Below, piece after piece: positions 258-53,992 of a DNA stretch of 53,992 nucleotides (position 1 is its first letter; each line of letters starts with the position of its first letter). The stretch lies in IMG/VR virus record IMGVR_UViG_3300045107_000078, positions 1 to 53,992 of that record. The stretch is one strand, 5' to 3'. The notes under the pieces are model-generated. The model searched no databases and had not been told where the DNA came from. It saw nothing but the letters and a program-made list of their open reading frames with translations. This DNA comes from a virus. Lineage: Duplodnaviria > Caudoviricetes. A program made the translations under genes and the position numbers.

Positions 258-607
258 TGCTGCACCTTCACCTGAACCGGTTCTGCGATGAGGCGCCGCA
301 GCGCCTCCATGACACAGTTCTCCAGTTCCTCGGCAACTGGCATGGCGATTTCCTGCTCGGTGGGGAAGAGGTGGAGTTCCATCGCCTCACCGAGAGGGGT
401 CCCCTGGTCGAAGCGGTGTACCACTGCGTCCAGCGTTGCCATAGCAGTATAGAAAGCGTCGTTGCCATCCTTCTTGACCCCGCGTTGCGCCAGATCGTCC
501 TCGACGTGGGCCAACTGATTGCCCACCTCATCGCTAATGACCTGCCGGAGCGAGAGGACCAGGGACTCGACAAATGCCACACGCTGACCTTCATTGAAGA
601 GTTTCAC
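254..607 (-). CDS. hypothetical protein
   Basis: Tightly packed minus-strand operon with AAGGAG upstream. Confidence 0.6.
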   Translation of the reverse strand: MKLFNEGQRVAFVESLVLSLRQVISDEVGNQLAHVEDDLAQRGVKKDGNDAFYTAMATLDAVVHRFDQGTPLGEAMELHLFPTEQEIAMPVAEELENCVMEALRRLIAEPVQVKVQQ

Positions 608-851
608 TTTCGTTCTCCTTCTGCACTAAAAGTTTGACCAGTCGCTCATCATTCTCCAAGAACAGGTTCTGGAGCATGGGGAGCATGCGTTCGCCATAGG
701 CTTTCCAGTCGGATTTCTTGCCACGCACATTGAGAGTGACGTTAGCAATCGCCTCACGACGCCGATGGTATTCCGGCCACCACTCACTCGATGGGATTCT
801 GTCCAGCAGATTGTCCAGGTCGAGGTAGTTGGTGGCCCACATGACTTTCAT
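591..851 (-). CDS. hypothetical protein
   Basis: ATG at 851 forms a TGATG overlap with the upstream stop. Confidence 0.55.
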   Translation of the reverse strand: MKVMWATNYLDLDNLLDRIPSSEWWPEYHRRREAIANVTLNVRGKKSDWKAYGERMLPMLQNLFLENDERLVKLLVQKENESETLQ

Positions 852-1654
852 CAGGGCTGTGATGTAGTCCAAGGGAATTCCTCGCGCCAGTTCTCAGCAG
901 CCCAAGGCAAGGAGCGCAGATTGCCCTTGAAGAAGACGGCTGCGCCCAGCTTGTCGGCAGTCTCCACCGTCCGGACCACATACTCGTGTTCTGGCGCGTA
1001 CTTCTGTGCGCCATTCGACGCCGCGCCAATCACAATCCAGTTCAGCGCGTTGGGGTAGGCGTTCATGTAGCTGTGCAGCGGAATGGTCAGTGGCTCGGCG
1101 CTCATCCACGTTGTCTTGGCGATACCACGCTCTTTGATTTCAGTGAGGGTGTTGAGGGCGGCAGTCAGCATTCGCTCCCGCTGGCCGTCCGTCAGCTTCT
1201 TGCCCCACATATAATCCGGCGGCGACGAGGCACCCACCCAGCAGTTATCCGGCAGCTGGAACTTCATCACGCGGCGCACGTTCTTCGTCAGGAAGATGAA
1301 CGTATGCCAGGACGCACGGCGGGCCACGTCGATAATCGCCTGCACCTGCTCCTCCGGCACCCAATGACCGAACACATCAGCCATTGAGCCGACGAAGATG
1401 CGGCTGGGCGCTTTGACGTTCAGCGGCTTCTCCAACTCCTTCGGCTCCCAATAGTGGTGCTCGAAGCCGTGCGGATAAGCTGCCTGCGCTACTTTCTCAG
1501 CCACGTTCTCGGCGTAGCAGTTGGCGATCTGGCCGTTGGGCATGGTCCACTGGCAACCATGCATACAACCCTTGATGGGGTTGTACGTGTAGTCGCACCA
1601 TTCGATTCCTCGACTGATGCTGCCGTCCTTGAGTTTCTTCTTCTGCTTATTCAT
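851..1654 (-). CDS. DUF5131 / phage Gp37Gp68 family protein (radical-SAM-like)
   Basis: IEWCDYTYNPIKGC..GC...NCYA, RIFVGSMADVF, HTFIFLTK, SAEPL, WIVIG and VFFKG motifs. Confidence 0.85.
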   Translation of the reverse strand: MNKQKKKLKDGSISRGIEWCDYTYNPIKGCMHGCQWTMPNGQIANCYAENVAEKVAQAAYPHGFEHHYWEPKELEKPLNVKAPSRIFVGSMADVFGHWVPEEQVQAIIDVARRASWHTFIFLTKNVRRVMKFQLPDNCWVGASSPPDYMWGKKLTDGQRERMLTAALNTLTEIKERGIAKTTWMSAEPLTIPLHSYMNAYPNALNWIVIGAASNGAQKYAPEHEYVVRTVETADKLGAAVFFKGNLRSLPWAAENWREEFPWTTSQP

Positions 1655-1983
1655 GCCACATCCTCAATGCCATTGAGGAGAACTTCCACGCACGTTGAGA
1701 GATATTCCGCCAGAGTGAAGTTCTCCATAACCTCCAGCGGAATCTCAGCCTTGAGGCACCAGTCGTAGGCCGCTTTCATGTAGCGGACGGTCTGCGCCCG
1801 CATCTTGTCAAAGTTCGCCAGCGCCTCGGCAGTGGCCTTCTCGTCGAACTCGCCGTCCTCGGTCTCAATGTCCGCTTCCTCAATGTCCTGGCGCATCGCG
1901 GCCATGCCGACAATCCGGACGTTGCCAGAGCCGCGCACGAGTTCCAGGTCAATCGGAGCGGGGTAGGGCTTGATGTCGCTCAT
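1651..1983 (-). CDS. hypothetical acidic protein
   Basis: ATGA overlaps at both ends. Confidence 0.6.
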   Translation of the reverse strand: MSDIKPYPAPIDLELVRGSGNVRIVGMAAMRQDIEEADIETEDGEFDEKATAEALANFDKMRAQTVRYMKAAYDWCLKAEIPLEVMENFTLAEYLSTCVEVLLNGIEDVA

Positions 1984-2261
1984 TCGAGTTTCCACACCTT
2001 GATGTCGCCCGCGCCATGAACCTTCGCGGCAGTGATGGCCTGGATGATGATGGCGTCAATCGCATCGAACGCTCCCTGAGACAGGAATTGTTCAATCTCA
2101 TCGCTGCCCAGGTCCAGCAGGATAAAGTCGTCTGCCTTCCTCTCGACGTAGCTGATGGTCTTCAACCGCTCCCATAGTTCAGCCGCCTGCTTCAGGCTGT
2201 CAATGTTCCAGTCCATGACTGGCTCGATGGTCACTTCCCCGATGCCGAACTCCAACTCCAT
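1980..2261 (-). CDS. hypothetical protein
   Basis: GGAGG RBS before ATG 2261; operon packing. Confidence 0.55.
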   Translation of the reverse strand: MELEFGIGEVTIEPVMDWNIDSLKQAAELWERLKTISYVERKADDFILLDLGSDEIEQFLSQGAFDAIDAIIIQAITAAKVHGAGDIKVWKLE

Positions 2262-2263
2262 GT

Positions 2264-2671
2264 TTAGTACCTCCACTGACGGCCATACTTCCACTGCACA
2301 TAGATTCCACGCTTGAAGCTGATGGAGTTCCAGTCCTCTCCAACAACCTCACAAATGCGCCGTACAATCTTGGCGCGGCCTATGCCCTTCGCTGTACGCA
2401 TCTTGATTGCCATTTTCCGGTAAAACTGCGTCACCTCGAATCCGGCAGCTTCCAGCGCATGAAGGCGCTGCACCAACAGACCGTCCCAATCCTCGTGCCA
2501 ATTCCATCGGCTACCGTCCCAGCCCTTGTCCCTGTAGGCATACTCAAGGTCGAGACGTGCGGCATAGGCACCCGCTCCTGGCCCAATGGCTTGAAGCTGC
2601 GGCAGTAACTCGGCGTACAGTTCGAACTGGCGCTTGTAGTTGGCGATCTGCTCCTCAAGCGGCGTTGCCAT
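2264..2671 (-). CDS. hypothetical protein
   Basis: GGAGG RBS; operon packing. Confidence 0.6.
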   Translation of the reverse strand: MATPLEEQIANYKRQFELYAELLPQLQAIGPGAGAYAARLDLEYAYRDKGWDGSRWNWHEDWDGLLVQRLHALEAAGFEVTQFYRKMAIKMRTAKGIGRAKIVRRICEVVGEDWNSISFKRGIYVQWKYGRQWRY

Positions 2672-2948
2672 GCGGTTCCTCCAGCTTTTTCAGGATGATG
2701 ACTTTGGCCTTTTCGTGTCGCGTCTTGGTCTGGTAGCCGAACCGTATGTAGCCCAGCTTCTCCAGACGGCGATACTGGAAGTACATTCCAGACTTGGTGG
2801 TGCCGAACCAGGCTGCGGCCTGGGCGTAGTAGGGCGGCTTGCCGTGAGCCGCCTCATAGTCCTGCACCCAGCGCATAATATCGGCCAGTCGCTTCGTCAT
2901 GCGTGGGCCACGCGGTCGCCGGTCGGTTGAATACCATCCGCTCGGCAT
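2655..2948 (-). CDS. LexA-type N-terminal winged-helix DNA-binding protein without a peptidase domain
   Basis: MTKRLADIMRWVQDY...HGKPP...AAWFG..KS......RRLEKLGYI matches the LexA DNA-binding domain pattern; GGAGG RBS before ATG 2948. Confidence 0.7.
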   Translation of the reverse strand: MPSGWYSTDRRPRGPRMTKRLADIMRWVQDYEAAHGKPPYYAQAAAWFGTTKSGMYFQYRRLEKLGYIRFGYQTKTRHEKAKVIILKKLEEPHGNAA

Positions 2949-2950: not shown

Positions 2951-3094
2951 TTACCTCCAGCTGAACAGGAAGATGAGCGTGATGCTCAGTTCCAGCACAC
3001 AAAACTTGTACCAGTTCAGCGGTCGGTGCTGCGGGCGATTCCGTAGCCACTGCTGGTGACGCTTCTGATAGTAGCGACGGTCTTTGCGGTTCAT
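2951..3094 (-). CDS. 47-aa basic protein with hydrophobic C-terminus (not in the ORF track)
   Basis: AAGGAGG-ATT-ATG start; translates MNRKDRRYYQKRHQQWLRNRPQHRPLNWYKFCVLELSITLIFLFSWR; fills the gap between neighbours. Confidence 0.5.
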   Translation of the reverse strand: MNRKDRRYYQKRHQQWLRNRPQHRPLNWYKFCVLELSITLIFLFSWR

Positions 3095-3627
3095 AATCCT
3101 CCTTGAGAACCGGTTCTGATAGCCCGAACTTGCTGACGGCGGCGATGCATCCGCGCCGTCAATTCCTCATAGGTCAGGGCGGTTGCGTGAAGCATCCCGC
3201 CCAGCGGCTTGGCCCAGGCCCACGACACCCAGCAGGGAATGTGGGTCCATCCTGCCCGCTGCGCAGCCAGCCAGCGGTGGTGGCCGTTGATAATCCCCAT
3301 CTCCGAGTAGTCCTGCATCTGCATGACAAGGATGGGCGGCGGCAGAGAGCCAGCCTGCATCCGCTCGGCGTACAGGACGATCTTCTTATGAAACTTCTCA
3401 TGGCTCGGTTCCAGCGGCGTCAGGCATTCGACCGGAAGCCAGCGGAACTGCTCCAGATGGTGGTGGTCAACCTGCTCCAGCGCCCGCACCGTGTAGGGCA
3501 GGACGTAGGCGATAACCCACTCACGGTCCTGCCACAGTGAGGTGTTGTCCAGTTCAGCGAGGGTCGGACGCGGGAACGCCTCAATGGGATACTTCCACAG
3601 CATGTTGCGCGGGCAAATGACAGGCAT
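3091..3627 (-). CDS. ParB/Srx-like N-terminal domain protein
   Basis: LPPPILV...IINGHHRWLAAQRAG..HIPCWV motif; GGAGGAG RBS. Confidence 0.75.
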   Translation of the reverse strand: MPVICPRNMLWKYPIEAFPRPTLAELDNTSLWQDREWVIAYVLPYTVRALEQVDHHHLEQFRWLPVECLTPLEPSHEKFHKKIVLYAERMQAGSLPPPILVMQMQDYSEMGIINGHHRWLAAQRAGWTHIPCWVSWAWAKPLGGMLHATALTYEELTARMHRRRQQVRAIRTGSQGGL

Positions 3628-5248: not shown

Positions 5249-5668
5249 CTACCACAGTTCGAACGTCTGGCTGTCGCGTTTGCGGTAGCAGTCGAGGCAG
5301 ATGATTTCGCCCTTGCCATTCTCGAAGTAGCCGCCGTTCTTGGGAGCATGGCAGCAGACACAGCGCGGGGCTTCGCCCAGCACCTTTACAGCCGCCGTGC
5401 CGCGATGCAGGTGGGCAACCAGGTGCAGCGTGTCGATGTACAGCACGTTCCCATCGGGGTAGCGCGACAGGCGATTCCCGCTACCAGTCGCAATCGAGAC
5501 GTGACCGGCGGTTTCGATGGAAGTCACGACGCCAGAGACGGCGAACTGTTGCTCCCACCAGTGTTCGGACCAGTCGGCCACGCGGCAGACGCCATTGACC
5601 TCGATGGCAACCTTATGACCGACATGGAGAATGGCTTCGCCGTTGATGTTCAGGGTGTTCGTCTTCAT
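5249..5668 (-). CDS. hypothetical protein with C-terminal CxxC...CxxC zinc finger
   Basis: CVCC...CLDC; AAGGAGG RBS. Confidence 0.6.
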   Translation of the reverse strand: MKTNTLNINGEAILHVGHKVAIEVNGVCRVADWSEHWWEQQFAVSGVVTSIETAGHVSIATGSGNRLSRYPDGNVLYIDTLHLVAHLHRGTAAVKVLGEAPRCVCCHAPKNGGYFENGKGEIICLDCYRKRDSQTFELW

Positions 5669-5690
5669 TGGGTCCTCCTTAGAACCGGTT

Positions 5691-6308
5691 CTAGTAGCAT
5701 TCGGGTTGTTGGCGCAGGCTCAGGGCTTCGTTCACATCGTCATGATGGAACGGGTCTATACAGACCATCCGCCCATCCATCGAGAGCCAGTCGCCATTGC
5801 CGAAGTCATCCCAAATGTGCTGGCAGTCGTAATCATGAACGAATTCGACCGGCTCCCTCAGTTCGGGGTACTCCTCACTGAGTTTGTAGATGGCGTCCCA
5901 GCGCCGCATCTGAACCGGCACGTTATCAACCATCCGCATGGGTATAAGCAGGTTGCGGATGGCACGGCGGATTTGCTTGGAACGGCGCAGCTGCTCGTCG
6001 GTGAGCGGGTCGAGCCGACGCACGAGGCAGCGGTAAACCGGCAGCGTGACGTGCTTCCATTCAAGGCGGGTGCTATAGCGGTTGGGCAGGCCGAAGCCGT
6101 AGTAGTGAGCCTCGCCTTCCTCGGTGTAGTAGTCCAGGGTGATGTCCAGCCCACGCTGCCACCACTCCAGTTTCATCTGCTCGACCGTGTAGCATTCCAG
6201 CACGTTGGGGTCGGCGGTCTCGTAGATGATGGATGTGTTGCCCTTATTGATGCGTGGGGCATCGGGCAACTTCACACCGACAATTTTGTTGGGGGTCAGG
6301 CGCATCAT
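5691..6308 (-). CDS. hypothetical protein, possibly a degenerate protein-kinase-like fold
   Basis: GGAGG RBS; INKGNTSIIYE, DDFGNGDWL and VCIDPF loosely follow kinase subdomains I, VIb and VII. Confidence 0.55.
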   Translation of the reverse strand: MMRLTPNKIVGVKLPDAPRINKGNTSIIYETADPNVLECYTVEQMKLEWWQRGLDITLDYYTEEGEAHYYGFGLPNRYSTRLEWKHVTLPVYRCLVRRLDPLTDEQLRRSKQIRRAIRNLLIPMRMVDNVPVQMRRWDAIYKLSEEYPELREPVEFVHDYDCQHIWDDFGNGDWLSMDGRMVCIDPFHHDDVNEALSLRQQPECY

Positions 6309-7509: not shown

Positions 7510-7716
7510 TTAACCTTCCTGAACAATTTGGATGTTGCGGATACCGTGCCGCACGATGCGGCCTTCTTCCTCAAGGGCCTTCAGCCAGCCCTGAGCCGTG
7601 TTGGGATTGACCGCGAAGTGCTTGGCGAGGTCAACGCCAGCAGGGGCGTAACCCCTGCACTGGCCGTGTTCTTCGATGTAGGCCAGCACTGCTGCCAGCC
7701 TCTCGGTATGCTTCAT
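7510..7716 (-). CDS. 68-aa LexA-type winged-helix DNA-binding protein
   Basis: TERLAAVLAYIEEH....GYAP...DLAKHF.V.......WLKALEEEGRIVR...R.IQIV matches the LexA DNA-binding domain. Confidence 0.75.
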   Translation of the reverse strand: MKHTERLAAVLAYIEEHGQCRGYAPAGVDLAKHFAVNPNTAQGWLKALEEEGRIVRHGIRNIQIVQEG

Positions 7717-8102
7717 CAGGCAGTCTCGTTGAGAACCGGTTCTGGCAGGATGGGAGCGGTCTTCGCGGCCTGATGGAGTTGCATGTGGACGGCCATCACG
7801 CAGAGGGTATGGCCCAGGTCGTAGGCCAGCTTGCGCTCACTGAAGAGGTGGGGCAGCAGCGTAAGCGGTTGGCCGTGAAACAGAATCTGGAAGCGGTCGC
7901 CCGACTGTTCCCAGCTGAAGGCGTTGGGGCCAGCTACCTCGCCATCCAGCGCAAAGGCGGTGTTGAGGTATGCCTGTCCCAGCTTGATAGCCAGGTCCAC
8001 ATCGTACAGGTGGCCGGCCAGCGGTTCGGGTTCGCCGCAGAAGGTGAGGGAGAGGTCCAGTTTGTGGTCGTCGGTGGGGGTAATCTTGGTCTCGTAGCAC
8101 AT
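7716..8102 (-). CDS. hypothetical protein
   Basis: AGGAGG RBS; TGATG overlap with the downstream gene. Confidence 0.6.
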   Translation of the reverse strand: MCYETKITPTDDHKLDLSLTFCGEPEPLAGHLYDVDLAIKLGQAYLNTAFALDGEVAGPNAFSWEQSGDRFQILFHGQPLTLLPHLFSERKLAYDLGHTLCVMAVHMQLHQAAKTAPILPEPVLNETA

Positions 8103-8271: not shown

Positions 8272-8306
8272 AGTGATACCTTTTCCAGAACCGGTTCTGG
8301 ATAGCA

Positions 8307-8320
8307 CTAATTATAGCAGA
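8307..8320 (-). promoter_or_regulatory. extended -10 promoter (TCTGCTATAATTAG) with palindrome just downstream at 8287
   Basis: TGnTATAAT; identical 14-mer at 11612-11625. Confidence 0.65.
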
Positions 8321-10916: not shown

Positions 10917-11039
10917 CTACCGGAACTGGATGCGAACGACGATACAGGGCAGGGGACAGGCATAGACCGTCCGGTTTTTCCGGTCGATGTAGACCCCCAC
11001 CCACAGGTCAAACCACTTAAAGAGCAGGTTCACGCGCAT
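10917..11039 (-). CDS. 40-aa hydrophobic phage protein
   Basis: MRVNLLFKWFDLWVGVYIDRKNRTVYACPLPCIVVRIQFR resembles a recurrent small phage protein; AAGGAG RBS. Confidence 0.6.
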   Translation of the reverse strand: MRVNLLFKWFDLWVGVYIDRKNRTVYACPLPCIVVRIQFR

Positions 11040-11238
11040 CGGCGGGTTGCTCCTTGACGTTGACCCTGTGCAGCAGCCGTGAGTGCCACCAGCGGGTCGG
11101 CCCGCCATCCTCACGGACTTCGAACTCCTGGCCGCGCTCGGTCTGTTCGAACGCGACCACTTCGCCCAGCACACGGCGATTGCGATTCCAGCGGTAAACC
11201 CGCTGGCCGATGGTGAATCTTGCCTTGGGACTCTTCAT
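11017..11238 (-). CDS. small SH3/KOW-like beta-barrel protein
   Basis: KARFTIGQRV...GEVV pattern; GGAGGAG RBS. Confidence 0.55.
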   Translation of the reverse strand: MKSPKARFTIGQRVYRWNRNRRVLGEVVAFEQTERGQEFEVREDGGPTRWWHSRLLHRVNVKEQPADAREPAL

Positions 11239-11591
11239 TCTCCTCCCTCTCTACAGAACCGGTTCTGAACTTCTTCGATGTTGATGCCCTGGCTGCGCAG
11301 GAACCGGCCCAGGTTGTGGTGGTTCTTGATGCGTCTCTCGTCGTTGCGAGTGCCACGAGCGGACCAAACGAGGTGGATGCGGATGCCTTGCTGAACGGCA
11401 GCGCGGGTGAAGCTGCTGCCGCGTCCGGCGCGATGGTGGTGGATGCGGGCGTCGAGGTACTTCGCCCAGCCGCAGTAAAATCGGGCTTGGTGCCGGTCAT
11501 TGCCCAGCGGGCGCTCCAGCATCAGGATGTACACGAAGCCTTGAGTGGTGGGGTCGGTTGTTGGGAGAACCGGTTCTCGATGTTTCGGCAC
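11235..11591 (-). CDS. GIY-YIG nuclease family protein
   Basis: FVYIL...FYCGWA..LDARI.HH..G.GS.FT...ERRIK. Confidence 0.8.
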   Translation of the reverse strand: MPKHREPVLPTTDPTTQGFVYILMLERPLGNDRHQARFYCGWAKYLDARIHHHRAGRGSSFTRAAVQQGIRIHLVWSARGTRNDERRIKNHHNLGRFLRSQGINIEEVQNRFCREGGE

Positions 11592-11611: not shown

Positions 11612-11625
11612 CTAATTATAGCAGA
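11612..11625 (-). promoter_or_regulatory. extended -10 promoter (TCTGCTATAATTAG)
   Basis: TGnTATAAT upstream of the GGAGG RBS of the GIY-YIG gene; identical to 8307-8320. Confidence 0.65.
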
Positions 11626-12672: not shown

Positions 12673-13356
12673 TTACGCATGGCGGCTCCAATCGCAGGTG
12701 CTGTAGTAGTGCAACCAGGCACGATAGCTGCCGATGACGGTGCTGGAGATAAAGCGCTCATAGTTCTCGCTGCGCTTATCCAGCGGGATATAGGCACCGT
12801 CGCGCAGGCCCACCTCAATGGCAAGCATGACCGGATGCTCGACCTGCTGGGCGCGGATGTAGTCCTGGAAGCGGAAGGCGCCCGCATCCTTGGGGTTGTC
12901 GGCCATGTACTTCTTCATGTCCGGAGCGCTCATCACGCGCTGGATGGCAGCAGTGATGTTATCGTTATGCTCCTTCGCCAGTTCCGCCTGCACGTCCTGA
13001 TAGGGCTGGCCGATTTGCCCATCGACGTAGTAGAACAGCTTGCCATCCTTATAGATGAAGCCGGTCTCCTTCTGGTCGCGGTGCAGGATGTAGATGGTGC
13101 TGGGGTCGGCGGGGTCGTCCTCAATGCTGAAGAGTTCCGCGATGGCGAGTGCCCAGCCCGCACTCTTGAAGTTGATGAGGTGGCGGTTGATGCGGTGCAG
13201 TCCAGCGGCGTCAGCCTCATAGATGCGGCCACCACACTTCAGTGAGACGTTCCAACGCTGCCAATCGGGTTCAGCGTTGTCAATCCATGACAGGTCCAGG
13301 TCCTCAGTGGGCATCTGGCTCGGCAGAACGGGTGCATCTTCGACGATCATTGGCAT
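12673..13356 (-). CDS. hypothetical protein
   Basis: AAGGAG RBS; 227 aa. Confidence 0.7.
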   Translation of the reverse strand: MPMIVEDAPVLPSQMPTEDLDLSWIDNAEPDWQRWNVSLKCGGRIYEADAAGLHRINRHLINFKSAGWALAIAELFSIEDDPADPSTIYILHRDQKETGFIYKDGKLFYYVDGQIGQPYQDVQAELAKEHNDNITAAIQRVMSAPDMKKYMADNPKDAGAFRFQDYIRAQQVEHPVMLAIEVGLRDGAYIPLDKRSENYERFISSTVIGSYRAWLHYYSTCDWSRHA

Positions 13357-14121: not shown

Positions 14122-14156
14122 AGTAACAGTGCCTCCTTAAGGCGAGTAAAAAGAAA

Positions 14157-14170: not shown

Positions 14171-14216
14171 ACTCTGCCCATGAACTCCAGAACTGGTTCT
14201 CATGGGCAGTAACGAA

Positions 14217-39930: not shown

Positions 39931-42900
39931 ATGATTTCCCAAGCTGAATGCGGCCTGAGCCTGACTGACTATAACAATCTCAAAGCCGCTGTCACCAATC
40001 CTGTATGGAATGTTGTTGCCCACCGCACCAATCCCGATTTTGCCTTATGGCTTACCTCCCCCAATACAGCCGACAACGACACGGCGACCGATTGGGATGT
40101 TGTGCAGCTGTCAGGCTATCTTTTCCGTGCTCCAACGCCTTCAGCATTAGAGCGCATTGATCTTGCAGCAGGAACAATCACTACGCTGGCCGGTTATTCA
40201 GCCCTCGCAAACGCCTATAAAGTTCGGCTTGGCGTATCCGGCAGCACGTTGTATGTATTTGCCCAAAAGTCAACAGATGAAACAATCTGGACGTGCAATA
40301 GTGCCGATAATGGCGCCAGCTTCTCAGCATGGACAAACACTGGCAATGGCGGTACGACCAGTGCGTTTTCGCAGATAACTCCATCGGGTGGTACAGCACT
40401 AGCCTCTAGTGCAGCCAGTGGATTCCCAGCGTCCAACGCTTTCGATACGGACACGGCAAGCGGATGGAAGCCAACTGCTGCATCGCCGCAATATGTTCAA
40501 TACACCTTCGCGGCTGACGTGCTAATTCAATATGCCTATATCCTGGCGGACAATCTTCGCGCCGGCGGCACCATCACTGTGATTGGCCTCACGGCTGCCA
40601 ATGTTGCCACTACGCTTCTGACTTACACAGTCGCCAATGATAACTATGGCAATGGGAAGTGGTCGCCTTTTATTGATTTCTCGTCGAACACCAACCTCTA
40701 TCGCTCTTACCGTTTCCAGTTTGCGGGTTACAGCACCGGTCTGAATGTTTCACTGATTCAGCTGTATTCAAACAAGACGGTAAAAGCGGTCAATGACTTT
40801 GTTGCCAATGGCAGCAGCTTAATCCGCGCCACGCCAACCGTGCTCGATGGCGCCAGTGTCAATCTCCAGAATGAGGGCCTAAATCCGCACTACCCTGTCG
40901 TATCAATTGCCTTTGTCCCTCTATCCAATGGCAACCTCTATGTTGTGGAGGGCGAACAACCAGGCAACTCAACCGTTGTGGTGGATGGGACAACAACCAC
41001 ACAAAAAACCTACGTGGCTTCTGGAATCTACTCTTACCTGGGACCAGGCCGTAGGCACAGCATTGACCACGTTGAGCCTATTGATATGGTTGACCACTCA
41101 GACAGCTTTTTATTCAGGAAAAATGTCAGAACATCGGTGGTGAACAGCAAGGTTTATGTAACAGCCTACACATCCGATGGTTCTACCGATTATCCTGTCA
41201 CTGGATACAAGGTTTATACCTATGAGCAGAACCAGTTCTGGAGCGCAGGAACATTCCTGCCGCTGCCTTCTGGTTACGGCACTTCTGGTGTGAGGCTTTT
41301 CCAGACAGGTGAGTATGTGTATGCAGTCCAGAGAGGGCTCGTTTATCGCTCCCCATCAACGCGCTTCTTTGGTTATTCTGCTGCCGCCTATCAGACTGAC
41401 ATTAGCAGTTATATTGACGGCATGGAGATGAACCATGACCAGAACTATCAGATTGGCCTTATCCTCCACAATGCCGATGGCACTTTCAATAACCACAGCA
41501 TCCTCAATAAGGCTAACACAGTGTCGCTGGTCCTCCAGCATGGCTATAACATTGGCGGAGTGCCGGTGCTAATTCAGACAGGCATTGCCGAAGTAGATAG
41601 CTACGATTGGCAATATGACCTTCCTACCCAAATGCTGCGGCTGACTGCTCAGGGATATATGGTGAAGGTGGCAGATCGGTTCCGCAGCGAAGATGCTATT
41701 GTTCGGAATACCATGATGGTAGGAATGGACGATTTCGCTGGCGGCTCATCGCAGTACGGGGGGCTGGGCCATGTCGAAATTCTGTCTGGCACATGGGTAA
41801 CAGCCAGCAATCTTCTCACTGCCACGACTGTCAAAAATGGAACAACACTGGCCTTCAATACCTGGCTCAATAACTGTGCAAATGGCGTGGTCGAGTGGAC
41901 CATGACACCTAGTTCAGCATTTCCGACTGCGCAGTTTTCCCAAGGCGCCGGTATTGTGTTCCGTGCTATAGACGATAAGAACTACTACTATGTTCTGATT
42001 GTGCGGAACGCTGGCGCATACTACTGTTCTGTTTGGCGCGTCATCAATGGGGTGCAAACGCTTCTCACTTTCTCATCGTCGTTCCCAGGTGGTGCAACAC
42101 AGACGGACAGTTTCCGTTTAATCTTCTCTGGCAACAACATCCAGATTATCACTCAGCCCGCCAGCGGAACCGCTGCTATCATCTTTAGTTATCAAGAGCC
42201 GCTTGCTGTGTCAGCTGTGCCTCCATACAAGCGTGAGTTCTCGTTGCTGCCACCGCAGCGGGGTTTTGTTGGGTACATCACACGTCTGACAACTGCAAGC
42301 GTGGCCTCGGTCAGCTTCTCCAACGTGCGTTGCTACAATCTCGATTCGATACCAGAGAGCATTGAGAGCGTGAGTAATCGGCTCTTTGGATTGGCGCAAG
42401 TTAAGGCTGAGATTGACGATTTCGGGTTCCTCAGTGGCAGCTGGGCTGATACCAACCTCGCCAGCAAATCCATTGTTGGTTCATCAATCACGGTTACAGG
42501 AAGCGGTTCTCTGTTCGGAAAAACTATCCGGACTGACTTCACGCCGCCGTCAGGGTCTTGGCGACTGGATTTCGAAAGCACTGGTTATCCTGCTTTCGTG
42601 ATGAACCTCAATGGCGGCGGACGACTGGATATTCGCCCATCCGGATGGTCATACGCCCCAGGGGACGTAATTTCCAACAGTTCATACTCCATGTACGACA
42701 CTATCTCGAACACGAATGCGAACAAACGCTATTCAGTTGTCTTCATGGAGGTGCCAGTTGGTAGCAGTGATGCGGGGTCTGATAACTGGTATGTACTAGC
42801 ATTTTTCGCGCAGAATATCTTAACTGGATTCTACGCTGAACGAAAAAGCGCCAACATGCTATTGACATCACAAATTGGCTTTGGTGTCTACGGCGCCGCC

Positions 42901-44272: not shown

Positions 44273-44302
44273 GTGACATGCAAGGCTGTTTGGCCTTATA
44301 AT
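44273..44302 (+). promoter_or_regulatory. sigma70-like promoter upstream of holin
   Basis: GTGACA-N18-TATAAT; near-palindrome AGAACCGGTTAT overlaps the holin ATG. Confidence 0.55.
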
Positions 44303-44334
44303 GTTGGTATCGTATCACAAACGGAGAACCGGTT

Positions 44335-44754
44335 ATGCAACCAATCAGCCCTGAAGTTCAGAATTTCGTTTTCCTGGTCCTGTCGGGCCTCATTACCTTC
44401 TTCACGCCCATTGTGCTGGACGAAGTACGCAGGTTCATCGCTGTGCAGCGGGCGAACGCGAAAGCCAAACTCACCCAGGCTCAGTGGGACCAAGTGACGG
44501 CGTGGACCGATTTTCTGGTCAAAGCCGCCGAACAGTCCGACCTGACCGGCGCCATTGTTCGCACCGGCCAAGAGAAGAAGCAGTATGTCCTCGGTGAACT
44601 CCAGAAGCTTATCTCTGGCGCAGGCTTTAACCTGGTGGATGTCTCCAAACTCGGAGACCTGACTGAGAGCCGCCTGCTGGACAAGGTTCACGAACCGCTG
44701 CCCGTTATTCTGGCAAGCGCAGAGACATTGAAGACAGGAGGTTCCGGCTCGTAA
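44335..44754 (+). CDS. holin, LL-H family-like
   Basis: Single N-terminal TM; LVKAAEQ....GQEKKQYV motif. Confidence 0.75.
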   Translation: MQPISPEVQNFVFLVLSGLITFFTPIVLDEVRRFIAVQRANAKAKLTQAQWDQVTAWTDFLVKAAEQSDLTGAIVRTGQEKKQYVLGELQKLISGAGFNLVDVSKLGDLTESRLLDKVHEPLPVILASAETLKTGGSGS

Positions 44755-44778
44755 TCGAGAACCGGTTCTGAACACACC

Positions 44779-48817: not shown

Positions 48818-49605
48818 TCTACGACTGCTTCACCCTCAACAACGAACTGGACTTGCTTGAGGTCCGGCTCAACACTCTCAATGAGGTGGTGGATAAGTTC
48901 GTCATCGTCGAAAGCGATATGACGTTCTCCGGCCACCCGAAGACGCCCTACTACTCCATCAGCCAGCACCGGTTCTCGCAGTGGCGCGACAAAATCATCC
49001 ATGTGCTGGTGAAGGACATGCCGCAGGAGACGGCCAACCGCTGGGACCGCGAATTCTACCAGCGCAACGCCATTTCGCGGGGACTGGTGGGCGTCCATCC
49101 GCTGGACCTCATCATCGTCTCCGATGTCGATGAGATTCCCAAGCCAGAGGCCATCCGTTGGGCGCGTGTGCTGGATGCGCCGACCGCCATCTCCATGAAG
49201 ACGTACTACTACAATCTGGAGAGCGTCAGCGACCAGTTCCTCATTGGCCCCTGCTGTATGCGGCCCCATCACAACCTGTCTCCCCAGCAACTGCGCGACC
49301 GGCGCTGGGAGTGGGAACGGTACAACGAGGGAGCGTGGCACTTCTCGTTCTTCCCTGTGCTGGACTGGTCGCCGGTGGAATCCGTCCAGATGAAGATACG
49401 CTCCTTCGCGCACGGCGAGTTCGACAATGAGACCTACCTCGATGCCAAACGGCTGGAGAAGGTCATCGCCGGCACCGTAGACCCGTTTGAGCGTTCCGAG
49501 TTCCCGATGCATCGGGAGCCGGTCAATCCCTCCCTGCCTCCGTATATCCTGAGCAATTTGGAGAAGTACAACAAATGGCTACCAGCGCCCTTGCCGCGTT
49601 CCTAG
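48814..49605 (+). CDS. GT17-like beta-1,4-N-acetylglucosaminyltransferase
   Basis: IYDCF..NNELDLL..RL..L..VVD.FVIVES..TFSG, RE..QRN, SDVDEIP, WHFS, K..SFAH.E. Confidence 0.88.
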   Translation: MIYDCFTLNNELDLLEVRLNTLNEVVDKFVIVESDMTFSGHPKTPYYSISQHRFSQWRDKIIHVLVKDMPQETANRWDREFYQRNAISRGLVGVHPLDLIIVSDVDEIPKPEAIRWARVLDAPTAISMKTYYYNLESVSDQFLIGPCCMRPHHNLSPQQLRDRRWEWERYNEGAWHFSFFPVLDWSPVESVQMKIRSFAHGEFDNETYLDAKRLEKVIAGTVDPFERSEFPMHREPVNPSLPPYILSNLEKYNKWLPAPLPRS

Positions 49606-50231: not shown

Positions 50232-50566
50232 TGATTAAACGAGTGGTCGTGGGGAATAACACCTATACGGTTGAGGAGTGGAAAGAGGACCGGCGAAATG
50301 ACTCCAATACGGGGCTTCTGCTGGGGGAAATTGACCACTTAGCACTGACCATAGGTGTTTTGGGGAGGATGGATGAGCGTGTCAAGAGAGTGATACTCAT
50401 CCATGAGATGCTGCATGCCATTTCATGGCAGACTGGCCTGTATCTGGACGATGAGACTGAGGAGCGCGTCGTGATTGCATTCTCGAACGCTCTGCTGCAA
50501 GTCATTGAAGAGAACCCCGCGCTTATCCGGTATCTGCGGCAGGGGGAAAAGAAAAACAGCCCCTAA
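50228..50566 (+). CDS. small HEXXH zinc metallopeptidase (ImmA/IrrE-like)
   Basis: LIHEMLHAI......EE.VV. Confidence 0.7.
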   Translation: MMIKRVVVGNNTYTVEEWKEDRRNDSNTGLLLGEIDHLALTIGVLGRMDERVKRVILIHEMLHAISWQTGLYLDDETEERVVIAFSNALLQVIEENPALIRYLRQGEKKNSP

Positions 50567-50615
50567 AGGCTGTTCCTGGAGGTGAGGCCGCAGGAGTACC
50601 GGACTGCGGCCATTT
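50546..50615. terminator. paired hairpins at the convergence of the two transcription units
   Basis: AACAGCC..GGCTGTT with U-tract on the minus strand; GGCCGCAG..CTGCGGCC-ATTT on the plus strand. Confidence 0.55.
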
Positions 50616-50648
50616 CCCCATTCTATCCATAACTGGTTCTCAATGCAA

Positions 50649-51017
50649 CTACTTCCGTGTTAGAACCGCGTCAATATCGTTCGGCCCTACTGGAACCAGC
50701 ACGGTCCCCAGGAACGGCGGCGGCTGCTGGCCCATCTGCTGGTACACTTCCAGCAGCGCCGGCGGCAGCGGAATGTGGTACGGTGACAGGTCGAACTGGA
50801 CTGTGATGGGATAATTGGTCTCGCCATCCCGCTTGATCTCAGTGATAACCCCCTGAGCATTGACAGGAATGCCCTGCTTAATCGGTCGAATCAGACTCAC
50901 CACCTGGTTGACCTCGAAGCGATGCTCCCAGCCCGCCGGAAAGCCCTCGAACAGGCGACCGAAGAAGTTGTAGTCCTGCGGCCCTGCACCAAACATATCC
51001 TCATAGTAGTTGTTCAT
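50649..51017 (-). CDS. hypothetical protein with SH3-like barrel
   Basis: F.VNQVV.L......P....G.I......YPI.V.F; GAGG RBS preceded by a palindrome. Confidence 0.6.
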   Translation of the reverse strand: MNNYYEDMFGAGPQDYNFFGRLFEGFPAGWEHRFEVNQVVSLIRPIKQGIPVNAQGVITEIKRDGETNYPITVQFDLSPYHIPLPPALLEVYQQMGQQPPPFLGTVLVPVGPNDIDAVLTRK

Positions 51018-51060
51018 GTTTACCTCAGAACCGGTTCTCAAGCCGGTATGTTAGGGACGA

Positions 51061-51492
51061 TTACTCATCGTCCTCGCTTTTGAATATCTTGCTCAGGTTG
51101 CCCAGGTAGCCCTTGTCCAGGCCGCTCTCCTTCTTCTTCTGGCGACTGGCCTTGCCTACCGTCAGACCAGACTCGATCAACTTCTCAGCCACCAGCTGGG
51201 CCACCATGTCAGCGTTGGCCGTGAATATCTCACTCAATGCATCCTTCGACAGGGTGCTGCTACTGCTGGGCAGCTGCACCCCCAGGTGCTGGCTGATGAC
51301 ACCCACAATAACCTGCCGCAGCGAGTACAGCCGCCCCTGCTCGTCTCGCTGCTTCAGCCAGTGTTCGAGGAAGTCGTATACGGGCTTCTCTTCCTGCTTT
51401 GACGGATTGAGTTTGAAGCTGTACCCGACATCCTCAGCCGCCCGCTCGACCCGCTTGGTGCCCTTGTCGCTGCGGGGTTTGCGCGGTCTCAT
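51061..51492 (-). CDS. putative DNA-binding partition adaptor (ParR position)
   Basis: TAATG-coupled downstream of the ParM-like gene; basic RKPRSDKG N-terminus; short amphipathic C-terminus. Confidence 0.6.
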   Translation of the reverse strand: MRPRKPRSDKGTKRVERAAEDVGYSFKLNPSKQEEKPVYDFLEHWLKQRDEQGRLYSLRQVIVGVISQHLGVQLPSSSSTLSKDALSEIFTANADMVAQLVAEKLIESGLTVGKASRQKKKESGLDKGYLGNLSKIFKSEDDE

Positions 51493-52550
51493 TATCCACC
51501 CTCACTGAGAACTGCATCGAACACCTGGGCGCCGCGCACGTTCGCCATGTGAATGTACTTCGGGTCTGTCACCAGATGCACGTTGCCGTGATTGAGGATG
51601 GCCTGAACCTTGTTGTACAGGATGCCGTTGCCGCCGCCGGTCAGGGCGATCAGGTCGTAGTCGGCGCCACCACCCAGGCTGGTCGTGTACAGGTTGAACA
51701 CATCATTGAGCACCGGATTGAGCGCCCGCTCCACCTCGCGTTCGCAGGGAATTTCGTATCCGCCGCCACGATAAACGTTGGTTTGGAGCGCCTGCTGGAG
51801 CCGATTCTCTGACGGTGCACCAGTCTTGAACCGGTCGCGGTAGACATGCTGGAGTTCCACCTTCAGTGCTTCAATGGCACTATTGATGCCATGCTCACCG
51901 CTGGCCGCGACGTTGTACCGGATGGTACCGTCCGCCGACACACCCAGGCACCCGCACGTCCCGCCGCCGATGTCCAGAATGCCAACCGCCAGACCGTTCA
52001 ATGGAGTTTCCCATCCCCGCTTGGTCTTGTTGAAGGCCATCATCGCGTAGCCGCCGAAGGGTTCTTCGAACGTCTGCACAGACAGGACAGGGAACTTGAA
52101 CTTGACGCCGCCGCATTCGAAGTTCCAGTTGCGCTTGATGCTGGCCCGCAGTTCGGCGCGGAACTCATAATCGGCGCTGGCATGGCTGGCGATCACGTCC
52201 AGGCCGCTCTCCAGTGATTCAGGGTTATTGAAGAACATGCGGGCGACCGCGCTGGCGAACAGGACGCCATAGTAGTCCACTGTGTATTTCGCACGGCGCT
52301 GGCGGCGGATGACCTCATAACTCTGCGCTGTCTCACCCACGACGAAGTAGCGGCCATCAATGGCGATAAAATCGAGAGGGGCGGTTTTGCCGTACCGGTC
52401 CATCGCGTTGGCGTAGGCGGCGGGGGTCAGTTCGGCAATCTTGTGGACGAACAGACACTCATATTCGCCGCAGACAATCTTGACGGCCCAGTTACCGCCA
52501 TCCATGATGAACTTGGGCAGACGTGAGATTTTGGGAATCGCTTTCGGCAT
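51492..52550 (-). CDS. parM: ParM/StbA-family actin-like ATPase
   Basis: DGGN..VK phosphate-1, VGE.A, EEP.G, ILDIGGGT phosphate-2, LTGGG adenosine motif, AN.RG. Confidence 0.85.
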   Translation of the reverse strand: MPKAIPKISRLPKFIMDGGNWAVKIVCGEYECLFVHKIAELTPAAYANAMDRYGKTAPLDFIAIDGRYFVVGETAQSYEVIRRQRRAKYTVDYYGVLFASAVARMFFNNPESLESGLDVIASHASADYEFRAELRASIKRNWNFECGGVKFKFPVLSVQTFEEPFGGYAMMAFNKTKRGWETPLNGLAVGILDIGGGTCGCLGVSADGTIRYNVAASGEHGINSAIEALKVELQHVYRDRFKTGAPSENRLQQALQTNVYRGGGYEIPCEREVERALNPVLNDVFNLYTTSLGGGADYDLIALTGGGNGILYNKVQAILNHGNVHLVTDPKYIHMANVRGAQVFDAVLSEGG

Positions 52551-52598
52551 GATATTGTGGTTTACCTCAGTATATCTCGATTGACCGATGTTTACTGA

Positions 52599-52627
52599 AT
52601 TGTATAACGGTTTCTGAGGTGTGGCAA
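52599..52627 (-). promoter_or_regulatory. sigma70-type promoter of the partition operon
   Basis: TTGCCA-N17-TACAAT on the minus strand. Confidence 0.7.
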
Positions 52628-52694
52628 CACGCCAGAAGCGACACCCGCGTTTCATTCACTTAATTCCTCTGCCCTTTGCAGAAGAATCTACCAC

Positions 52695-52721
52695 AAAAAC
52701 AAAAGCGGCCCGAAGGCCGCT
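52695..52721 (-). terminator. intrinsic terminator after the RNA ligase gene
   Basis: AGCGGCC-TTCG-GGCCGCT followed by TTTGTTTTT. Confidence 0.8.
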
Positions 52722-52739
52722 CTCAACATTGAGGGATGG

Positions 52740-53992
52740 CTACCAGTCAGGCCGTTTGGTCATGAAGGCCACGCCAGTGCCAACCTCTTTGGTCGCCAGC
52801 ATCAGTGAGGGCCATAGGGTCTCTGGCAGCGTGTCGAACACAGCCTTTGCTGCCTCGAAGCTGAGGTATGGGCCGTAGTTCGCGTTGGCCGTGTTGATGT
52901 ACCAGACGTTCTCGTTCCCACTGATGATGTGGGCCATCAGGATTACCCTGAGAATGGGCGCGTCCTGAATGTCATTGAAGGCATGCTTGTAGATGAGTGG
53001 GGTGATGTCCTTGCCGGCTTTGAGGGCATAGACATAGGCGTGAAGCCGCTTGGCGTTCTCCTGCTGCACCCACAGGGCGAATTCTTTCTGACTACCGCTC
53101 GGTGCGAAGCGCAGGCGCGTCTGGCATTCCAGCTGGACATTGCGCACGGTCGTGTCGATGTACGCCTTCCACTGCCGAATCTGGCTCAGGAACTCGTCAG
53201 GCACACCCTCAATCATGGCGTCGAACTGTCCGGCCTGAACGGACTGTAGGACGCGGCTGAAAGTAACCTGCGTCATGATGCGATGCGCCAGCCGGTAGGC
53301 TTCGCCCTTGATCTTGAACCGCTGGCCGTCCGCGAACCGCAGCACCCATCCCTCCTCATTGGCCGTCAGCTTGGCTGCGGCTCGCAGTACGTCCTCCACT
53401 GAGGTGAAGTCGTACCACAGCGGCACCTGTATGCCATAAGCAGCTGCGAAGTCATGCACCACGCGCAGCGGGTAGTCCTCGCCGGTGAACCGGTTCCGGA
53501 TGCCCAGCAGGAACAGGCCCTGGCGCCCCTTGTAATCGACGACGATGCGGTTCTCAGGATAGATGATCTCGAAGAGCATGGTGAACGAGTGTGGCAGACC
53601 AGCGAGGTCCATGTACTGGAGCCGCTCGGTCGCCCACAGCGCCTGCTCACTGGTGAAGCTGCCGCGTGTGGCAATCTTCAGCTTGCCCTGATGCCGGTAC
53701 AGGATGCCTAGCGACCCATCCATCTTCTCAGTGGCCTCGACGATAGGGCCAGAACTGGTTCTCCCGCGTTCTCCCCAATTGAAGAACTTAGGGAAGGGCA
53801 GCGCGACCACCTCGCCACTCTCTGCGTCCAGAATCAGCCCTCGGCTGTGGGTCTCGAACCAGTTCCAGCGGTTCTGGAACTGTGCCAGTGCCGTGTAGTT
53901 GAACAGCACCAAACCCTCGTGGTAGGTGGCGTTGACCTCACCGAACTGTTTCCAGTCGGTGCAGCCCTGTTGAACCAGATGGCTCAGGCTGT
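52740..53992 (-). CDS. T4 Rnl1-like RNA ligase (5' end runs off the window)
   Basis: RGLI, PFPKFFN, EKMDGS, ATRGSF, FEII, EGWV and KIK motifs; frame open to the window edge. Confidence 0.88.
   Translation of the reverse strand, partial: SLSHLVQQGCTDWKQFGEVNATYHEGLVLFNYTALAQFQNRWNWFETHSRGLILDAESGEVVALPFPKFFNWGERGRTSSGPIVEATEKMDGSLGILYRHQGKLKIATRGSFTSEQALWATERLQYMDLAGLPHSFTMLFEIIYPENRIVVDYKGRQGLFLLGIRNRFTGEDYPLRVVHDFAAAYGIQVPLWYDFTSVEDVLRAAAKLTANEEGWVLRFADGQRFKIKGEAYRLAHRIMTQVTFSRVLQSVQAGQFDAMIEGVPDEFLSQIRQWKAYIDTTVRNVQLECQTRLRFAPSGSQKEFALWVQQENAKRLHAYVYALKAGKDITPLIYKHAFNDIQDAPILRVILMAHIISGNENVWYINTANANYGPYLSFEAAKAVFDTLPETLWPSLMLATKEVGTGVAFMTKRPDW

Follow-up and report, generated by a model that had tools for sequence, protein, structure and literature searches.

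Short DNA sites that recur over a whole replicon have been described in several settings. The C1 repressor of phage P1 has more than a dozen asymmetric 17-mer sites scattered over a plasmid-prophage genome, and the HIP1 element of cyanobacteria is an over-represented short palindrome with thousands of host-genome copies, most of them unrelated to gene junctions. Dispersed short repeats of phages are known from few groups, and a mechanism has been established only for the stoperators of Cluster A mycobacteriophages (L5 gp71 type), at which bound repressor halts elongating RNA polymerase (PMC9283540, PMC4351075). The Cluster O mycobacteriophage Corndog has 34 copies of a 17-bp palindromic repeat, TGTTCGGNNNCCGAACA, with 7-bp arms (TGTTCGG/CCGAACA) and a free 3-bp center. 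These palindromes are unexplained, as neither their binder nor their function is known, and the authors of that report saw no tie to translation starts (PMC4351075). Cluster K mycobacteriophages contain Start Associated Sequences (SAS), a repeated 13-bp element near start codons that is absent from the host genome and whose function is not known (PMC3203893). The IncP-1 plasmid RK2/RP4 encodes KorA and KorB, small dimeric repressors of which one is also a partition protein (PMC11790492, PMC2665229). Here we describe a 12-bp palindrome, AGAACCGGTTCT, dispersed over the genome of an uncultivated phage of the class Caudoviricetes. The window analyzed is one whole IMG/VR virus record (IMGVR_UViG_3300045107_000078; 53,992 bp), in which the palindrome is strongly enriched, concentrates at gene junctions, and is best explained as a putative double-stranded DNA site for a symmetric dimer.

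Copy number and symmetry of the palindrome

The window contains 17 exact copies of AGAACCGGTTCT and 10 copies with one mismatch, the first of which starts at 273 and the last at 53751, giving 27 copies at no more than one mismatch. They lie on both transcription arms. These counts and the presence on both arms agree with an earlier note on this DNA, made from the sequence alone, which had listed 17 perfect and about 10 one-mismatch copies. No perfect copy arose in any of 100 dinucleotide-preserving shuffles, in which copies at up to one mismatch averaged 0.12 and never exceeded 1. The enrichment also withstood the codon-preserving shuffle that the note had proposed: in 100 such sequences, perfect copies averaged 0.1 (maximum 1) and one-mismatch copies 1.66 (maximum 4). 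Copies with two mismatches numbered 9, compared with about 1.6 in shuffles.

All 12 positions of the site are fixed, the central CCGG included. When a single mismatch occurs, it falls at one of the two central positions in 5 of the 10 copies and at the outermost positions in 3. The palindrome is extended by at least 1 bp in 9 of the 17 perfect copies. The core at 8287 gains 3 bp on each side to form the longest palindrome, of 18 bp, and the core at 22013 gains 2 bp on each side; the extended forms that the note had placed at 8284 and 22011 measure 18 and 16 bp. The copies are spaced somewhat more regularly than random placement would give (coefficient of variation 0.60 versus 0.92; p about 0.03). 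Enrichment and non-random placement are real. The string AGAACCGGTTCT was absent from the papers searched in the PMC Creative Commons set and bioRxiv.

Genome-wide, 6-bp palindromes are strongly avoided: 23 of 64 are absent and 12 more are present once, compared with 78 absent among 4,032 other hexamers. Those with no copies include TGGCCA (40.8 expected), GCGCGC (27.9 expected), and CTGCAG (25.4 expected). Among 4-mers, GATC (68 versus 224 expected) and CTAG (17 versus 64 expected) are depleted. Of the related records described below, G001, G005, and G003 lack 25, 21, and 16 of the 6-bp palindromes, and G002, without such avoidance, lacks only 6. Palindrome avoidance suggests heavy restriction pressure from the host. 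Because the genome otherwise avoids palindromes, enrichment of the 12-bp palindrome is all the more striking.

Placement of the copies at gene junctions

Start codons were refined by a Shine-Dalgarno (SD) rule blind to the motif. Among the 17 perfect copies, 11 count as non-coding, with 6 or more bases outside coding sequence, compared with 5.4% of positions (p = 1e-10). Ten end no more than 20 nt upstream of a start codon, compared with 3.1% of positions (p = 1e-11), and 4 of these 10 are contained in the final codons of the preceding gene. By a count made by eye, a copy with 0 to 2 mismatches is present in about 12 of the roughly 22 true intergenic regions. Sequence context confirmed the adjacency to ribosome-binding sites or starts that had been claimed for the copies at 3106, 5681, 11255, 39467, 44325, 44758, and 51027. 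The distance from copy to start ranges from -2 to 85 nt among junction copies. In intergenic regions of at least 40 nt it varies from 9 to 85 nt, and the distance to the preceding stop is likewise unfixed. Because these distances vary in the long gaps, the factor that the copies share is the junction and not the ribosome-binding site.

Six perfect copies lie wholly in coding sequence and use all three reading frames, encoding RTGS, NRF, or EPVL, the peptides that the note had listed (Table 1). RTGS at 3106 and 34698 was read in translations, and the other peptide readings were derived from coordinates. The perfect coding copies sit in C-termini or in a Gly-rich linker. The latter applies to 34698, the only perfect copy deep in coding sequence, in the middle of a 9-kb gene. 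Since all three frames occur among the coding copies and most perfect copies (11 of 17) lie outside coding sequence, selection acts on the nucleic acid and not on the peptide. The copy at 34698 had been assigned to a linker between RNA polymerase and tape domains. The Gly-rich stretch is present, but the two domain labels found no support: the 3054-aa open reading frame (ORF) at 30300-39464 (+) matches no Pfam or PHROG family, and no D-x-D-x-D motif was found in it.

Promoter-like sequences beside the copies

A TATAAT-like hexamer (at least 5 of 6 matches) is present within 45 nt upstream, on the transcribed strand, for 5 of the 27 copies, compared with 3.1% of positions (p = 0.0014). These five hexamers end 3 to 37 nt upstream of the copy, and 2 more copies have such a hexamer immediately downstream. 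A generic promoter scan detected no overall promoter excess. Five hits of the scanner score 10 to 11 out of 12, and 3 of these are followed by a copy within 12 to 40 nt; all three transcribed-strand hits in this score range (11644-11615, 39427-39454, and 44273-44302) precede a copy. With the transcription start placed about 7 nt after the -10 box, the copy occupies +5 to +16 at 8287, +6 to +17 at 39467, about +16 to +27 at 44325, about +31 to +42 at 11566, and about -1 to +11 at 22013. At the 29250 junction, tggTACAAT has the perfect copy on one side (about -33 to -22) and a three-mismatch copy on the other (about +1 to +12). Promoter adjacency was thereby recovered at 8287, 11566, and 29250 as claimed earlier; at 22013 it was seen only by visual reading (TTGCAT-18-TGaTATGCT), unflagged by the scanner.

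Two promoter-like words recur in the window. On the minus arm, GCTATAATTAG..CTATC occurs twice (8311-8316 and 11615-11620). On the plus arm, TTATGGTAYAATGT / TTATAATGT occur three times (29262-29278, 39440-39456, and 44290-44304). The two words suggest that there may be two promoter classes. The TTATG box recurs at the syntenic junction of the relative G005.

A site in DNA or in RNA

The 12-nt RNA of the motif folds at 0.0 kcal/mol, with no predicted structure. In 15 of the 17 contexts, the predicted fold does not improve on that of sequences with shuffled flanks; the exceptions are 8287, with its 18-bp palindrome, and 13395, with a 28-nt hairpin. None of the 9 two-mismatch variants carries a compensatory change that keeps the palindrome, and an Rfam search of the window gave no family matches. 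Because 12 positions are fixed, the RNA core is unfolded, and compensatory variants are lacking, a double-stranded DNA site for a symmetric dimer appears to be the best fit for the motif. The claim that the site is selected as DNA is thus favored.

Some specific roles were tried and rejected. Only 13395 and 29250 are terminator-like, which speaks against a terminator function. An N4-like hairpin promoter, recognized by a virion RNA polymerase, is disfavored by the distribution of the copies, which extends beyond any early region, and by the failure to find a polymerase domain. A restriction or methylation target, a nick site, or a pac site would not be expected to be 12 bp long and tied to gene junctions.

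A proposed operator network and its candidate binder

We propose a genome-wide operator/roadblock network on duplex DNA, bound by a phage-encoded dimeric DNA-binding protein, and give this reading about an even chance. It gains from the association of copies with -10-like boxes. In this scheme, AGAACCGGTTCT would be a double-stranded operator read by a two-fold symmetric protein, either dimeric or with tandem domains, most likely encoded by the phage. At promoter copies, where the site would span about -33 to +42 of the start and mostly +1 to +20, bound protein would stop the polymerase from leaving the promoter or in early elongation. Elsewhere, the copies are found at gene junctions within operons, in a single linker of the 9-kb gene, and in a pair of terminator-like hairpins; protein bound there would act as an elongation roadblock or insulator, in the manner of stoperators. 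Copy number, placement statistics, the lack of an RNA fold, and the domain identity of the candidates are observed; protein binding, the identity of the binder, and repression by binding are what we infer in this scheme.

The leading candidate, and the most likely binder judging by domain type and position, is P0001, a predicted 68-aa protein (Table 1). Its matches in the PDB (E up to 10) are all LexA N-terminal domains (9 of 9; best 1.9e-4), and it is without the cleavage and dimerization domain of LexA. LexA-type domains read GAAC-type half-sites. The motif has GAAC and GTTC half-sites separated by 2 bp. Among 1.84 billion representatives, 21 distant relatives of P0001 were found (E up to 1e-3). 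None was found in viral contigs, and a word-index search returned only P0001 itself. Some of the distant relatives (P0005, P0010, and P0021-23) have the LexA domain twice per chain, an arrangement that would fit paired use of the domain. The longest palindrome lies at the head of the P0001-containing operon, just after a TATAAT box, so that P0001 might regulate itself through this palindrome and through the copy 15 nt before its own start codon.

Five proteins had been named as possible binders. As a set they are generally borne out as DNA-binding-like, and 7510-7716 (P0001) is the one with a clear domain match. P0002, whose core lies at 2655-2948, is a weaker LexA-DBD-like alternative. The product of 17133-18269 has a weak N-terminal helix-turn-helix (HTH), and that of 3091-3627 matches ParB_N at 23.6 bits, below the 26.3 cut-off, with no HTH found. 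P0004 (51061-51492) gave no family, PDB, ParR, ribbon-helix-helix (RHH), or other DNA-binding match. One phage thus encodes two small proteins with a LexA-type or LexA-like DNA-binding domain and no cleavage domain (2655-2948 and 7510-7716), of a family that is very rare among the representatives searched.

Relatives and their own repeats

The major capsid protein was used to search for relatives and found 17 loci in IMG/VR, 26 loci in JGI metagenomes, and none in species genomes. No close relative was present in the collections searched: the best capsid identity was 48%, and distant relatives ranged from 40 to 48%. Megablast of 30000-42000 and tblastn of the capsid against phage and plasmid collections gave no match. 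The relatives share capsid, portal, terminase, and an ORF of 3000 to 3600 aa with the window, and no early gene at the tblastn level; the 3054-aa ORF resembles its same-position counterparts only in the last approximately 200 residues (2626-2841). This lineage includes hot-spring-mat members.

The distant relatives lack AGAACCGGTTCT, which was present in none of the 17 IMG/VR loci from the capsid search. K-mer counting on five full records revealed, post hoc, that each carries a dispersed short repeat (12 to 13 bp) other than AGAACCGGTTCT. G001 carries 7 copies of TCCAAC(0-1 nt)GTTGGA (shuffle mean, 0), G002 has 8 of TCCAC-NNN-GTGGA (shuffle mean, 0.07), and G003 has 9 of CTAKCGMTAG (shuffle mean, 0.19; maximum, 4). 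G004 has 5 copies of the G002 type, despite a G+C content of 42% versus 55%, and G005 has 4 copies of an asymmetric 12-mer. The tube-like gene and the gene after it enclose a syntenic junction (the 29250 junction in the window) at which a repeat is present in 4 of 6 records, namely, the window (G000), G002, G004, and G005. In G000 and G005, an inverted repeat pair surrounds a TTATG-containing -10-like box at this junction. The giant ORF contains at least one repeat copy in 5 of 6 records, at non-homologous positions. Conservation of position, which the earlier note had regarded as a test of its proposal, thus speaks partly in its favor: the records carry their own repeats at the shared junction. 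Such a pattern, with sites specific to each genome at a regulatory junction that is conserved, would be expected if repressors and operators co-evolve in pairs.

Of 9 small ORFs after the relatives' repeats that were searched in Pfam, none encodes a DNA-binding protein; one is an ABC-transporter permease. In G003, the region at 50.6-54.7 kb (L055:10584-14650) contains genes for a periplasmic binding protein of the sugar-ABC type and for a permease (PF02653, 3.5e-37), the latter with a repeat copy 17 nt upstream of its start. It also contains a glycosyl-hydrolase-like gene and encodes a catalytic domain like that of class I tRNA synthetases, and a UvrD-type helicase lies beyond it. The sugar-ABC/permease region lies between phage genes and represents auxiliary metabolic genes or host DNA. 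An apparent repeat in L034/L027, TATCTNAAAGG, was rejected as a coding (protein) repeat.

Observations against the operator reading, and alternatives

Several observations weigh against an operator network read by a symmetric phage protein. An SD-like purine run follows the motif after 0 to 1 nt at 3106, 5681, 22013, 51027, 8287, and 14189 (6 to 7 copies), and in G001 and G002 the 3' arm of the repeat is the SD itself (GTGGAGG in G002). No copy lies in the divergent region between the arms (16624-16857), a place expected to carry early promoters. Neither an integrase nor a CI-type repressor turned up in the 54 kb, in a record estimated to be 66% complete, so that the lysogeny presumed by the stoperator analogy is hypothetical. 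PF01726 was detected in 0 of 5 related records, all incomplete, which leaves P0001 with no detectable counterpart there; since no early gene is shared with the relatives by tblastn, position and domain type are what connect P0001 to the site. The half-site centers are about 7 to 8 bp apart, closer than in typical winged-helix dimers. Finally, the asymmetric repeat center keeps one orientation relative to transcription within a variant class, in 4 of 4 copies in G001 and in 8 of 8 in three classes in G002 (for the latter, a post hoc p of about 0.03, which is suggestive), and orientation is also seen in the G005 repeat. Orientation consistency counts against a symmetric dimer because such a dimer would not require it.

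These SD and orientation features are what an element acting in mRNA would explain. Like the SAS of Cluster K mycobacteriophages, the motif would be associated with translation initiation: positioned immediately 5' of the ribosome-binding site or over part of it, it would tune or couple translation through local pairing with the SD or through a protein that binds RNA. We consider this unlikely. The 10 perfect copies close upstream of start codons favor it, as do the copies between SD and start at 39467 and 44325, the pairing of the motif's 3' half with the SD in two predicted folds (3106 and 5681), and the repeat centers oriented with transcription in G001 and G002. In addition, an ATG follows the repeat by 6 to 7 nt in 3 of 8 G002 copies and by 6 to 8 nt in 3 of 7 G001 copies. 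However, the long intergenic regions show no fixed distance from copy to start, and copies are also present in mid-gene (34698), at a 3' end far from starts (18243), and just past a start (11566). The RNA core is unfolded, nearly all contexts are no more stable than shuffles, and no compensatory variants were seen. The link to -10 boxes is inexplicable at the RNA level except for a 5'-end element. We rank an RNA-level role below a DNA-level one because the invariant self-complementary center suits a symmetric protein on a duplex and is needless in a hairpin loop.

We regard as improbable a second alternative, in which the copies are bound by a global regulator, nucleoid protein, or other protein of the host, or derive from a host-chromosome repeat, and let the phage plug into host control. 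The GAAC/GTTC half-sites resemble Gram-positive-type LexA boxes, but the spacing is GAAC-N2-GTTC, compared with N4 in the LexA box. The relatives, at 37 to 55% G+C, probably have different hosts and each has a different repeat, and the 23 absent six-base palindromes indicate strong adaptation of the phage to host DNA recognition. Yet G002 and G004 share a repeat type across 55% and 42% G+C, as a trait of the phage lineage rather than of the host would be. Moreover, the 12-mer reached at most 2 copies per genome in 653 sampled bacterial genomes of three phyla. It was contained in 36 of 401 genomes of the phylum of a Chloroflexi metagenome-assembled genome (MAG), in 19 of 151 of the phylum of an Obscuribacterales MAG, and in 7 of 101 of the phylum of a Trueperaceae MAG. 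Among the matches listed for the 14-mer GAGAACCGGTTCTC, at least 120 genomic stretches (894 kb, many phyla), none contained a second 12-mer. The HIP-like host repeat that had been considered earlier was therefore not found in the genomes sampled, which may not include the host.

A dispersed centromere or genome-organizing system, modeled on the dispersed N15 centromere sites or the KorB OB sites of RK2, seems very improbable to us. The copies would serve the ParM-like ATPase encoded at 51492-52655 (-) (phrog_691, 3.5e-20) with an adaptor at 51061-51492, or the ParB_N protein at 3091-3627. The presence of the ParM-like gene with no conventional iteron array nearby, the perfect copy that follows the stop of the gene in the adaptor position by 22 nt, the rather even spacing, and the existence of a ParB_N match are in its favor. 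Against it, searches with the protein in the adaptor position gave no match to ParR, RHH, or other DNA-binding families, the ParB_N match is sub-threshold in a protein in which no HTH was found, and the ties to -10 boxes and start codons are left unexplained. Type II centromeres are clustered repeats, and no clustered iteron (parC-like) array was found within 50400-53992. The dispersed centromere raised in the earlier note is thus a weak rival.

Least credible are junction "linkers" that would spread or persist by aiding modular recombination between genomes (gene gain, loss, and shuffling), or promoters for a phage-encoded RNA polymerase: a Cluster O gene flanked by two copies of the 17-bp repeat (PMC4351075) and an identical stretch before two small ORFs of G002 favor the former, and copy number and junction placement like those of T7-type promoters favor the latter. 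However, homologous exchange would have very little to work with in 12 bp, transcription from a perfect palindrome could have no set direction, the products searched yielded no RNA polymerase domain, and host-type -10 boxes lie upstream of several copies. The G002 stretch, identical over 23 nt (repeat, GGATACT, and ATG) and over the next two bases, occurs at 1422 and 33601 (L050:1402-1434 and L051:13601-13625) before two different 75- to 76-aa ORFs on opposite arms, and it resembles a copied gene-start cassette.

Phage record and gene layout

The record is classed as linear, with an estimated completeness of 66% by CheckV. Its genes form three blocks: minus strand at 1-16.7 kb, plus strand at 16.9-50.6 kb, and minus strand at 50.6-54 kb. 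Besides the structural genes in Table 1, recognizable products include an SU10-type adaptor and a tube-like protein. The window also encodes a holin-like protein, several glycosyltransferases, an S-adenosylmethionine (SAM) methyltransferase, an RNA ligase, and a ParM-like "partition protein." With the SU10-type adaptor encoded upstream of it, the giant ORF may specify an internal or ejected protein of a podovirus-like virion. The gene at 8648-10141 matches phrog_6247, "DNA topoisomerase." Among approximately 70 window products searched, we found no integrase, CI-type repressor, or RNA polymerase domain. No tRNA was detected in the window, and no protelomerase was identified in it. The ParM-like gene is followed by that of a 143-aa basic protein (51061-51492, -) without a family match, and a terminator-like hairpin (52725-52700) separates this pair from the RNA-ligase gene. 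A plasmid-prophage lifestyle of the phage is possible. The runs containing the sequence are labeled hot springs or microbial mat metagenome, and all are marked as possible sources; the 4 that contain it in full are contig sets, and no RNA run is listed among them.

Table 1. Copies of the palindrome and selected genes in the window
Feature	Position	Strand	Context
Perfect copy	3106-3117		In last codons (RTGS) of gene 3091-3627(-); 11 nt downstream, SD AAGGAGG and ATG of 47-aa ORF 2951-3094(-)
Perfect copy	5681-5692		Overlaps TAG stop of gene 5691-6308(-); AAGGAGG directly after, ATG of 5249-5668(-) 12 nt on
Perfect copy	7732-7743		Inside 3' end of gene 7716-8102(-), reads NRF; 15 nt upstream of P0001 ATG
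18-bp palindrome (TCC + core + GGA)	8284-8301		Starts 11 nt downstream of minus-strand tgcTATAAT, ends 15 nt upstream of GTG 8271
Perfect copy	11255-11266		3' end (EPVL) of gene 11235-11591(-), weak GIY-YIG match; 16 nt upstream of ATG of 11017-11238(-)
Perfect copy	11566-11577		14 nt inside gene 11235-11591(-), EPVL; 37 nt downstream of tgcTATAAT (promoter-like 11644-11615)
Perfect copy	13395-13406		Center of 28-nt terminator-like hairpin 13386-13413, between genes 13426-14121(-) and 12673-13356(-)
Perfect copy	15860-15871		Abuts stop of gene 15871-16242(-); start of 96-nt intergenic region
Perfect copy	17103-17114		Intergenic 17050-17132; overlaps TATAAG; 18 nt upstream of TTG start of HTH-bearing gene 17133-18269(+)
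Perfect copy	18243-18254		Last codons (RTGS) of gene 17133-18269(+)
16-bp palindrome	22011-22026		49-nt gap before portal gene; TGaTATGCT ends 6 nt upstream; then GGAG, ATG 22037
Perfect copy	24397-24408		2 nt after stop of 23720-24394(+); 66 nt before major capsid gene
Perfect copy and 3-mismatch copy	29250-29261 and 29284-29295		Bracket tggTACAAT (29271-29276); together a 19-pair inverted repeat
Perfect copy	34698-34709		Gly-rich stretch DDGGEGSGGGQGNSRTGSEGGGT (NSRTGSEGGG), residue 1465 of 3053
Perfect copy	39467-39478		12 nt downstream of tggTATAAT (promoter-like 39427-39454); between SD AGGAG and GTG of 39480-39920(+)
Perfect copy	44758-44769		3 nt after stop of holin-like gene 44335-44754(+); 9 nt before ATG 44779
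Perfect copy	51027-51038		22 nt after stop of 51061-51492(-), gene downstream of ParM-like; GAGG directly after, ATG 51017 9 nt on
One-mismatch copy	273-284		15 nt upstream of GTG 257(-)
One-mismatch copy (center)	659-670		Coding
One-mismatch copy (center)	14189-14200		Intergenic 14122-14216, in loop of 10-bp inverted repeat
One-mismatch copy (position 1)	14661-14672		Coding
One-mismatch copy (center)	16310-16321		Intergenic 16243-16338
One-mismatch copy (position 12)	27845-27856		Coding
One-mismatch copy (center)	41228-41239		Inside 1180-aa ORF
One-mismatch copy	44325-44336		22 nt downstream of TATAAT (promoter-like 44273-44302, 11/12); overlaps ATG of holin-like gene
One-mismatch copy (position 3)	48965-48976		Coding
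One-mismatch copy (center)	53751-53762		Coding, RNA-ligase gene
P0001	7510-7716	-	68 aa, stand-alone LexA-type winged-helix DNA-binding domain; PF01726, 28.5 bits (cut-off 23.7)
P0002 core	2655-2948	-	Weaker LexA-DBD-like protein, alternative binder; PF01726, 19.1 bits, below cut-off
Large terminase	18547-20274		Family match
Portal	22037-23707		Family match
Major capsid protein	24475-25839		Family match

Discussion

The signal presented here is clean, its statistics are overwhelming, and the lineage in which it occurs is uncultivated and unrelated to the phages in which such repeats were described. It also offers workable features: a small, easily expressed candidate binder, promoter-proximal copies, and relatives with different repeats at the same junction. 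A broader proposal, which we put forward only tentatively, is that each genome of this lineage may bear its own 12- to 13-bp signature at promoters, at junctions, and in the giant gene, read by fast-evolving orphan single-domain binders, in the window a LexA-type winged helix lacking the cleavage domain. The signatures would form a stoperator-like network for silencing or timing, independent of that of the mycobacteriophages, with a symmetric site and maybe without a lysogeny module. If the network reading of the palindrome holds, genome-wide operator/roadblock control would be a recurrent phage solution and not an actinobacteriophage oddity, and such motifs could group metagenomic phages by regulatory (immunity-like) specificity.

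The nearest known systems, none of which is matched on every defining feature, are the palindromes of Cluster O, the stoperators of Cluster A, the SAS of Cluster K, and the KorA/KorB operators of RK2. Unlike HIP1, the motif occurs in no more than 2 copies in any genome searched, and unlike in the LexA (SOS) box, its half-sites are 2 bp and not 4 bp apart.

The remaining comparisons extend as far as the accounts cited at the outset describe each system. Like the operators of KorA and KorB, the copies are short symmetric sites spread over a mobile replicon of about 60 kb, some at promoters and some distant. Unlike RK2, the replicon is a phage and not a plasmid, and KorB is a ParB-family CTPase clamp, whereas the only ParB-like match here is sub-threshold and without an HTH. 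The resemblance to SAS lies in the position just upstream of start codons, with occasional overlap of the upstream gene's stop. SAS are asymmetric, contain the SD, lie 3 to 7 bp from the start, and are limited to the non-structural half of the genome; the element in the window is palindromic, has no GGAG/SD inside, is present in all arms, and is found also beside -10 boxes.

As with the Cluster O repeat, there are tens of dispersed inverted-repeat copies with invariant arms, mostly intergenic or at gene ends and about a third of them coding. The site in the window differs in sequence, has no spacer and all 12 positions fixed, and lies within 20 nt of a start in 10 of 17 copies; phage lineage, host, and habitat are unrelated. 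The repeats of the relatives G002 and G004 do have a free 3-bp center, between 5-bp arms. Stoperators, in turn, lack symmetry, follow the direction of transcription, and bind a monomeric repressor with two domains, whereas the site here is a perfect palindrome, and stoperator phages differ from the window, in which no integrase or immunity cassette was found. Stoperator systems also have sites in short intergenic gaps and one at the early promoter; here, 11 of 17 perfect copies are non-coding, and 5 to 7 copies lie beside -10-like boxes and none in the inter-arm region. What the window and its relatives have in common with stoperators is the presence of many 12- to 13-bp sites genome-wide, with sequences that differ between related phages.

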